A stretch of 50,066 nucleotides of DNA from the sequence record PQ571291; one strand, 5' to 3'. Under the pieces are notes generated by a model. The model was not told the origin of the DNA, did not search any database, and saw only the letters and a list, made by a program, of their open reading frames with translations. The position numbers and the translations under genes are program-made. The DNA is from Escherichia phage EF3-1. Shown here piece by piece: positions 37,409 through 38,349 of this stretch; position 1 is the first letter of the stretch, and the number at the start of each line of letters is the position of its first letter.

Positions 37409-37696
37409 ATGAGCAAGAGTCATAAGTTAAAAATCAACCCGGTACATTTCATCGGAGTAATGAACGGAACCAAAACGGCAGAGTTCCGCGTCAATGACCG
37501 CAACTTCCAGGTTGGTGATATCCTGGAGCTACGAGAGTTCGATCGCGGTGAGTTTACCGGGTGGGAATTTCACGCCAGGGTATCCGATGTTACAGATGTG
37601 ACGCCATACATTGATCGCGGGTATGACGATCAAGGGTGCGACTTCACGCAATACGTGATGTTATCAATCAAGCCTTACAGGAAGGTTAGACCATGA
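37409..37696 (+). CDS. ASCH/PUA-like small protein candidate (95 aa)
   Basis: KLKINPVHFIGVMNGTKTAEFRVNDRNFQVGDILELRE resembles ASCH/DUF3850-type fold signature; motif-level only. Confidence 0.45.
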   Translation: MSKSHKLKINPVHFIGVMNGTKTAEFRVNDRNFQVGDILELREFDRGEFTGWEFHARVSDVTDVTPYIDRGYDDQGCDFTQYVMLSIKPYRKVRP

Positions 37697-38349
37697 AATT
37701 TGAGTGCGTATCAAGTAGCGGATCTGGTTTTAAGTGGGGTAAGGTCTACGAAGGCGCTCGCGTCAATGATGACAGCTTCGTCATTACTGATGAGAACGGT
37801 TGCAACGTGAACGTTGTACGGCGTCACGAATATCAGGAAATTTTTCTGCCTTATGGCAATAGTTCAAAATACATCTTCCATCGAATCGTGGATGGTGTTA
37901 AATTTAACGACGTAATCGAAGCAATCAACCAACTGCATAATAAAGAGGTAAAATTTATGAAATTCGAATGTATCAGCGATAACACCAAAAAATTTACTGT
38001 TGGCAATATTTACGAAGCGCCGACCGAGAACGCAAAACACACTGTAGCGCTTACTGACGACACGGGACGTCACCGCATTGCTACCGTAACGCACAATGGC
38101 GAAGGTCTGAGATGGAATAGCGGCGGCACTAAGTTCGCAACTTTCGGTAAGAAGAAGCAGAAATTTAATACCAGTCGAATCAAGGGCGGTTTCCGCATCG
38201 AACATGGTAAGATTCACAGCGTTCAGCCAAGCGAAGTTGATGGTAAAGCCAAGCCTAAGCTGACCAACAAGGATATTGATAATCTGGCGAATCTGGCTAT
38301 GGCTACCGTGCTTCTTATTTCTCTTATCGTGCTGTTTTTCGTAGTTTAA
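37693..38349 (+). CDS. membrane-anchored protein with internal tandem duplication (218 aa)
   Basis: Two repeats starting MKFECVSSSG.. and MKFECISDNT..; C-terminal TM helix LAMATVLLISLIVLFFVV; ATGA-coupled. Confidence 0.6.
   Translation: MKFECVSSSGSGFKWGKVYEGARVNDDSFVITDENGCNVNVVRRHEYQEIFLPYGNSSKYIFHRIVDGVKFNDVIEAINQLHNKEVKFMKFECISDNTKKFTVGNIYEAPTENAKHTVALTDDTGRHRIATVTHNGEGLRWNSGGTKFATFGKKKQKFNTSRIKGGFRIEHGKIHSVQPSEVDGKAKPKLTNKDIDNLANLAMATVLLISLIVLFFVV

Follow-up and report, generated by a model that had tools for sequence, protein, structure and literature searches.

A putative tail-anchored accessory protein of T1-like phages with a predicted SH3-like barrel and a partial internal duplication

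Membrane tethers in which a flexible charged linker connects a folded domain in the cytoplasm to a single transmembrane helix include ElaB/YqjD and, as a mirror image, ZipA of Escherichia coli as well as p16.7 of phage phi29. A small phage barrel has been described in Gp54 of phage Bas11, a nonessential protein of 66 amino acids that forms a six-stranded barrel with a prominent beta1-beta2 loop; this topology was characterized as "very rare in nature", with SH3 as the nearest fold, and the protein binds and activates the defence protein CapRel SJ46 (PMC11578894). About half of the genes of T1-type phages are without known function, and two proteins to which roles have been assigned or proposed in these phages are Cor, which serves exclusion, and an SH3 protein regarded as a lysis accessory (PMC13164509).

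We analysed a small membrane protein gene in a stretch of 50,066 nucleotides, referred to below as the window. A 1.2-kb query around the gene matched 248 phage records, with the Tunavirus genomes DELF2, Sfin-1, UP30, and ADB-2 at the top (89 to 93% identity over the full query length); on the basis of these matches, the window is a T1-like siphophage genome (Drexlerviridae, Tunavirinae). The open reading frame proposed by the first-pass annotation was confirmed, with an ATG start and 218 codons for amino acids. The profile of phrog_10580 matched residues 1-217 of the 218 (E = 4.6e-112), that is, as a full-length member of the family, and homologues were 55 to 94% identical and 210 to 220 amino acids long. 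The genomic position is common to the family, after a homologue of T1 gene 69 (49 amino acids) and before a terminator and a homologue of gene 67. In the records of relatives the gene appears as one hypothetical protein of 212 to 218 amino acids directly after an "RNA-binding protein"; the gene is thus already present in databases as a hypothetical protein of the phrog_10580 / T1 gene 68 family. Of 50,697 phage records searched with tblastn, 67 contained the protein, every one of them from a phage of Escherichia or Shigella, and in 57 of these 67 a single match covered at least 80% of the 218-residue query, corresponding to the two-module form described below. Literature searches by locus tags and family identifiers returned nothing on the gene; a PNAS 2026 paper on toxic early phage products was set aside, given that it concerns T5-like phages and not this gene. 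The features of the locus, all on the plus strand, are as follows.

37327-37344 (+): copy of the intergenic direct repeat of Drexlerviridae, ATAGCACnnnTTGnTAAA, with which the presumed small transcription unit of the gene opens
37346-37383 (+): imperfect hairpin that encloses the extended -10-like element TGATATAGT (37362-37370), from an inverted repeat and a pattern match
37389-37395 (+): CAACCAA, left copy, bounding 537 nucleotides missing in T1
37409-37696 (+): DUF3850/ASCH-like gene, 95 amino acids (Pfam PF12961, phrog_986), the TGA of which overlaps the next ATG
37693-38349 (+): 218-amino acid open reading frame, stop codon included, long form of the T1 gene 68 family (phrog_10580), from the reading-frame call and profile match
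37693-37956 (+): module 1, amino acids 1-88, beta-rich over about 1-66 plus a helix at 71-82, in a low-to-moderate-confidence model
37926-37932 (+): CAACCAA, right copy, inside the end of module 1, bounding the same 537 nucleotides
37943-37959 (+): internal Shine-Dalgarno sequence AAGAGG (37943-37948), 8-nucleotide spacer, and ATG (37957-37959)
37957-38151 (+): module 2, amino acids 89-153, predicted six-stranded SH3-like beta-barrel, conserved core of the family
38152-38265 (+): basic, low-confidence linker, amino acids 154-191, variable between relatives
38266-38346 (+): C-terminal transmembrane helix, predicted tail anchor (amino acids 192-217 in the AlphaFold2 model, hydrophobic core 197-218)
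38358-38388 (+): intrinsic terminator with a 10-bp stem (38358-38381) and a T-rich tail, closing the unit

The gene would form part of a small transcription unit that runs from the direct repeat and hairpin through the ASCH-like gene and the 218-residue reading frame to the terminator. The reading frame overlaps that of the upstream 95-residue protein by 4 nucleotides in the ATGA configuration noted earlier, which supports translational coupling of the two. The upstream protein matched DUF3850 (2.2e-15), ASCH weakly (0.0035), and phrog_986, annotated as "RNA-binding protein", at 1.6e-36, and the synteny of DUF3850 with the gene is kept across two genera. The 18-nucleotide repeat ATAGCACnnnTTGnTAAA occurs in 27 copies in the window, compared with 0.45 expected, and its strand tracks gene orientation; further copies lie, for example, at 34982-34999, 38709-38726, and 40602-40619, and phage TLS has been reported to carry a matching direct repeat of 21 nucleotides (PMC11447400). 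The sequence TGnTATAGT follows the repeat at a fixed distance in three places (34982/35017, 37327/37362, and 40602/40637), with a noncanonical spacer of 22 nucleotides between TTGnTA and TATAGT; upstream of the gene, TGATATAGT is accordingly located 22 nucleotides past the TTGCTA of the repeat. A sigma-70 scan upstream of the gene revealed no canonical promoter, and the hairpin together with TGATATAGT is a candidate promoter/operator. T1 gene 68 has the same hairpin element immediately before it, and a comparable hairpin, with TGGCATAAT, precedes the single-module gene in a metagenomic contig (L006) and in Badaguanvirus IME347. T1 and Chapo have an annotated terminator at the corresponding site, and the terminator sequence is kept in relatives. 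Early expression is suggested by the position of the gene in a series of small accessory genes leading up to that of the polynucleotide kinase.

The first-pass annotation had described the protein as a tandem duplication of two units of roughly 85 residues, and the motifs that open the units were found as MKFECVS at residue 1 and MKFECIS at residue 89. Comparison of the units by BLASTP aligned residues 1-36 with 89-125 (38% identity over 37 amino acids, E = 9e-7), and an hhalign comparison of family profiles, built from 28 module-1 and 31 module-2 sequences, gave a probability of 97% (E = 1.2e-10) over 49 columns, the alignment ending at column 49. None of 2000 shuffles reached the score observed for the N-terminal halves (z of 10 to 13; 12.8 for the local score), whereas residues 41-88 scored against residues 129-176 at the shuffle mean (z of -0.1), with no similarity apparent between these C-terminal halves. 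The repeat is therefore significant for the first 37 to 50 or so residues of each unit, with a shared identity of about 31 to 38%, and a length of 85 residues was an overstatement. Short DNA repeats were in register at 264 nucleotides, and when hidden Markov models of the units were run against all 832 translations of open reading frames in the window, the best non-self match of each was the other unit (i-E of 1.5e-6 and 1.1e-4). The units are nevertheless unequal, with the first comprising 88 amino acids and the second a barrel of 65 amino acids followed by a basic linker of about 40 and the anchor. What holds of the proposed duplication is thus the presence of two related soluble modules, not a symmetric repeat, the extra N-terminal module having diverged.

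Module 1 arose either by partial tandem duplication, in support of which each module has the other as its closest relative within the genome, or by fusion with a paralogue, which is to be considered because phrog_14592 matches residues 11-92 at 8.8e-7. A further idea, that the helix closing module 1 derives from a former 5' untranslated region, was dropped, given that T1 as a deletion derivative would explain the similarity to T1 there equally well.

Comparison with T1 and other relatives indicates that module 2, the linker, and the anchor constitute the conserved core, to which module 1 has been added only in Escherichia/Shigella Tunavirus among the relatives compared here. The product of T1 gene 68 (YP_003876, 124 amino acids) consists of module 2, linker, and helix only; it aligns to residues 89-218 of the window protein and is 65% identical to it over module 2, linker, and anchor. 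Compared with T1, the window thus has both 88 additional N-terminal residues and the ASCH-like gene upstream. The 537 nucleotides that T1 lacks are bounded in the window by the two copies of CAACCAA, of which T1 (L005) has one, at 3597-3603; a further 9 nucleotides, CATAATAAA (37936-37944), differ from T1, and the two stretches together contain the ASCH-like gene and almost the whole of module 1. Single versus double occurrence of this 7-nucleotide sequence is, at the level of sequence pattern, a signature of microhomology-mediated deletion or insertion; the ASCH-like gene and module 1 may have been deleted between the copies in T1 or may never have been present there. In a more distant lineage, represented by L006 and IME347, a direct repeat and a hairpin separate a DUF3850 gene from a single-module gene downstream, which codes for about 126 to 129 amino acids. 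The single-module state is probably ancestral. In phage Chapo, the first 58 or so codons of module 1 have been lost, and the absence or truncation of module 1 in viable relatives such as T1 and Chapo marks it as dispensable in nature. In the record of Shigella phage vB_SsoS_008 (L011, 1201-1812), both the homologue and its downstream neighbour are broken up into fragments; we did not take the split gene for a real pseudogene, since neighbouring genes are split as well and sequencing frameshifts are the probable cause.

Pairwise Nei-Gojobori comparison with four relatives gave dN/dS values of about 0.15 to 0.2 for module 1 and 0.05 to 0.09 for module 2, so that the first unit evolves two to three times faster. 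These ratios place both modules under purifying selection in frame, module 2 more strongly, and module 1 therefore appears to be a real coding part of the gene rather than a decaying leader. An exhaustive profile search of 1.84 billion representative proteins yielded nine hits, all phage-type and unnamed, among which were four further single-module-plus-helix proteins of 104 to 145 amino acids and one protein of 270 amino acids with four tandem copies of a related module, VxCIDxxGRKYLTxGKxY...DDKG. Two short hits, P0046 and P0047, were rejected as standalone genes because they are frameshifted copies of module 1.

To describe the fold, we obtained structure models with AlphaFold2. The full-length model had a mean pLDDT of 65.9, the other four models averaging about 38 to 42; it showed module 2 as six strands (pLDDT of 78 to 91), residues 157-189 as disordered, residues 192-217 as a helix, and module 1 as beta-rich with a helix at residues 71-82, the model of this module being poor, with a pLDDT below 50 at residues 44-67. 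For residues 89-218, with a more diverse alignment, all five models agreed (72 to 76) and the barrel reached about 77 to 94. Of the polar residues that are invariant or nearly so in module 2, most map between predicted strands: the long beta1-beta2 loop holds N97, T98, K100, and T102; D122, D123, and G125 follow beta3; and G136 is located between beta4 and beta5. The positions of R128 and H134 are inside beta4 or at its edge, and that of R140 is inside beta5. SH3-type domains bind ligands through loops of this kind.

The six-stranded SH3-like barrel predicted for module 2 is shared with Gp54 of Bas11 (PDB 9AXB; PF25180). The likeness is one of fold only, at 9 to 13% identity: PF25180 did not hit the window protein in a Pfam search at E values up to 1, and hhalign gave it a probability of 0.3 to 0.4%. 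In addition, Gp54 is a free protein of 66 amino acids without an anchor, whereas the window protein is predicted to be anchored. The window carries a true Gp54 homologue elsewhere, at 34321-34509 (+), which matched PF25180 at 1.1e-35 (121.6 bits) and the Bas11 protein by phmmer at 2.8e-15, and before which a copy of the direct repeat is located at 34245-34262. Another SH3-clan family, DUF7244 (PF23896), matched the window protein over residues 90-111 only, at 18.1 bits (E = 0.0029), short of the gathering score of 27, and an hhalign comparison pointed to a marginal relationship (E = 0.0014, probability of 18%). DUF7244 proteins share with the modules small-barrel size and an N-terminal motif, M-K-x-x-K/E-C-I ... 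F ... Y ... D-x-x-G, but they have no anchor and occupy another genomic place. By the thresholds of these Pfam families, the gene lies outside both Gp54 and DUF7244, and in the models module 2 shares the fold of the former.

Searches of Pfam, NCBIfam, PADLOC, and PDB sequences with the window protein retrieved no significant named family. A partial PADLOC match to a Type I specificity subunit (17.7 bits) was rejected as spurious, and weak, partial hits to Erf4 and ytfP were likewise attributed to chance. A fold search of BFVD returned only uncharacterised proteins of T1-like and other phages, several of them consisting of a barrel and a C-terminal helix. The gene is a conserved, ordinary accessory gene of T1-like phages, with one or two small SH3-like barrels and a C-terminal anchor predicted for its product; what is new here is the description of a small SH3-like accessory barrel of a phage that is predicted to be tail-anchored and is partly duplicated.

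The C-terminal transmembrane helix of the earlier annotation is the sole hydrophobic segment predicted in the protein. In a Kyte-Doolittle scan the 19-residue maximum was 2.68, at residues 200-218, no other segment exceeded 1.2, and no N-terminal signal sequence was apparent, so that the protein presents the sequence features of a tail anchor: one C-terminal transmembrane segment without a signal or second hydrophobic segment. The C-terminal segment is hydrophobic in all 15 aligned homologues. Residues 153-196, before the helix, carry a net charge of +7, and the protein ends in ...LFFVV with no residues past the helix. The megablast matches of many relatives end at 38154. We looked for covariation of the linker and anchor with the small downstream membrane reading frame and found no signal, this reading frame being conserved with both linker types. 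Given the absence of a signal, the charge of the linker, and the lack of residues past the helix, the barrels should, by the positive-inside rule, face the cytoplasm, joined to the tail anchor in the inner membrane by a basic and flexible leash some 40 residues long. The same architecture is found in ElaB/YqjD, ZipA, and p16.7, with which the window protein has no sequence or fold relationship; ZipA and p16.7 have an N-terminal anchor, unlike the C-terminal one predicted here.

The reading that we place first, and in which our confidence is evenly balanced, is that the protein serves as a membrane-tethered binding adaptor at the inner membrane face, possibly in a long and a short form, as suggested by the sequence features and structure models together. 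It would be accessory and nonessential in T1-like phages, with a tail anchor in the inner membrane and the barrel of module 2 as the conserved working part. We infer that the barrel would bind a protein partner and hold it, or act on it, at the cytoplasmic face of the membrane, presumably in the early phase of infection. Module 1 would be a diverged extra copy of the N-terminal half of the barrel, kept by purifying selection in most Tunavirus.

A short form may be made in the following manner. The internal Shine-Dalgarno sequence and ATG at 37943-37959 are kept in every two-module relative examined, including the most divergent, and the region is identical to the start region of T1 gene 68, that is, to a native single-module start. 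Survival of an ancestral Shine-Dalgarno sequence and ATG inside the reading frame suggests that a 130-residue form initiated at 37957 may accompany the 218-residue form, although the nucleotide conservation could merely reflect conservation of the amino acids KEVKFM. In an elaboration compatible with the adaptor, and which we consider unlikely as stated, the short form (equivalent to T1 gp68) would be the effector and the 218-residue form would modulate it, for example by mixed oligomers, a logic analogous to that of dual-start phage genes. The retained start, which is the sole one in T1, argues for such a pair of isoforms, as does the annotated in-frame alternative product that T1 carries at another gene, 63/63A. 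Synonymous change is also low in codons 67-88 compared with codons 1-66 (sd of about 0 to 1 versus about 18), but this difference is based on 22 codons and could be explained by recombination history.

There is also a slim chance that nested products of 218 and 130 amino acids tether a Gp54-type barrel at the inner membrane face and there capture or neutralise a host factor, such as a membrane-proximal immunity protein or a protein of cell-envelope biogenesis; anchored and free Gp54-fold proteins would then form one class of Drexlerviridae host-interaction proteins, some of which are sensed by CapRel-like host sensors. Nothing suggests that the window protein itself is a CapRel trigger.

Superinfection exclusion, or a block to DNA entry at the inner membrane as exerted by T4 Imm, P22 SieA, or HK97 gp15, would suit a small membrane protein encoded in a block of small, presumably early accessory genes and present in only part of the family. 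We regard such a role as improbable, given that the protein matched no named exclusion protein or PADLOC model and nothing in NCBIfam, that it is predicted to have no periplasmic residues, and that Cor already serves exclusion in T1-like phages (PMC13164509).

Little probability likewise attaches to a membrane anchor for phage nucleic acid or replication machinery in the manner of phi29 p16.7, in which DNA or RNA would be the ligand of the barrels and the basic linker, the upstream ASCH-like protein possibly taking part. Nucleic-acid binders are known among SH3-like barrels, the linker has a basic charge (+7), and synteny with DUF3850 extends across two genera; however, the net charge of each barrel is close to zero (-1 and +1), T1 has retained the gene although it lacks the ASCH-like gene, and there is no similarity to p16.7.

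The first-pass annotation had favoured a dimeric binding module that possibly targets a host envelope protein. A chain in which two related modules adjoin a membrane anchor would be suited to clamp such a protein as a pseudodimeric pair of equivalent domains, but we consider this decidedly improbable: the modules are unequal, alike only in their N-terminal halves and at the limited identity given above, the first evolves faster and is dispensable in nature, and the predicted orientation is cytoplasmic. An envelope target in the periplasmic sense is unlikely in view of the missing signal, the +7 linker, and the terminal helix, whereas one at the cytoplasmic face of the inner membrane is possible. 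Finally, an auxiliary lysis or holin-like function, drawn by analogy from the standalone SH3 (DUF7244) gene beside the lysis cassette, a family proposed as a lysis accessory (PMC13164509), is very improbable despite the weak match to DUF7244 at residues 90-111, because this match falls below the Pfam cut-off, the true DUF7244 gene lies 12 kb away with the lysis-type reading frames (about 25.5 to 26.9 kb, by T1 synteny and size), the helix has no charged C-terminal tail, and the gene belongs to a small accessory block.

One of the many T1-type genes of no known function gains a predicted architecture of tail anchor, leash, and Gp54-type barrel, and the gene family offers a defined conserved core, natural one- and two-module variants, and a probable orientation. 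The rare six-stranded barrel of the CapRel trigger Gp54 would recur, joined to a membrane anchor, in one or more further gene families of Drexlerviridae. With the architecture defined, experiments to find the target should be straightforward.

Several other reading frames in the window are of related character. The standalone DUF7244 gene at 25546-25716 (+; 1.9e-28) is located just upstream of reading frames that resemble the T1 holin, endolysin, and spanin in size and order, an arrangement that has been reported for phage KanT1. Small reading frames at 32821-33033 (-), 41458-41655 (+), and 29125-29541 (-) contain the motif KFEC / VRCI / LKCT ... F ... Y ... D-x-G and match the module models weakly (E of 0.0016 to 0.07), a pattern that points to small-barrel accessory proteins forming a family dispersed over the genome; what looks like an internal repeat in 29125-29541 was not significant (z of 1.8). 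The 162-residue product of 36115-36603 (+), encoded 1.1 kb upstream of the gene, has weakly similar halves (K-I/V-K/R-L-L..GGY...P-I/V-I-V-D; shuffle z of 4.4, 7 of 2000) and is matched by phrog_13367 in two stretches, and it may be another internally duplicated accessory protein. Just past the terminator, a reading frame of 40 amino acids at 38400-38522 (+) has a hydrophobic C-terminal half (...ELLFCLLVLTLSLKGVLWLLS) and at its end overlaps with the beginning of the gene that follows. T1 (gene 67) and DELF2 conserve this reading frame, which may specify another small membrane peptide.
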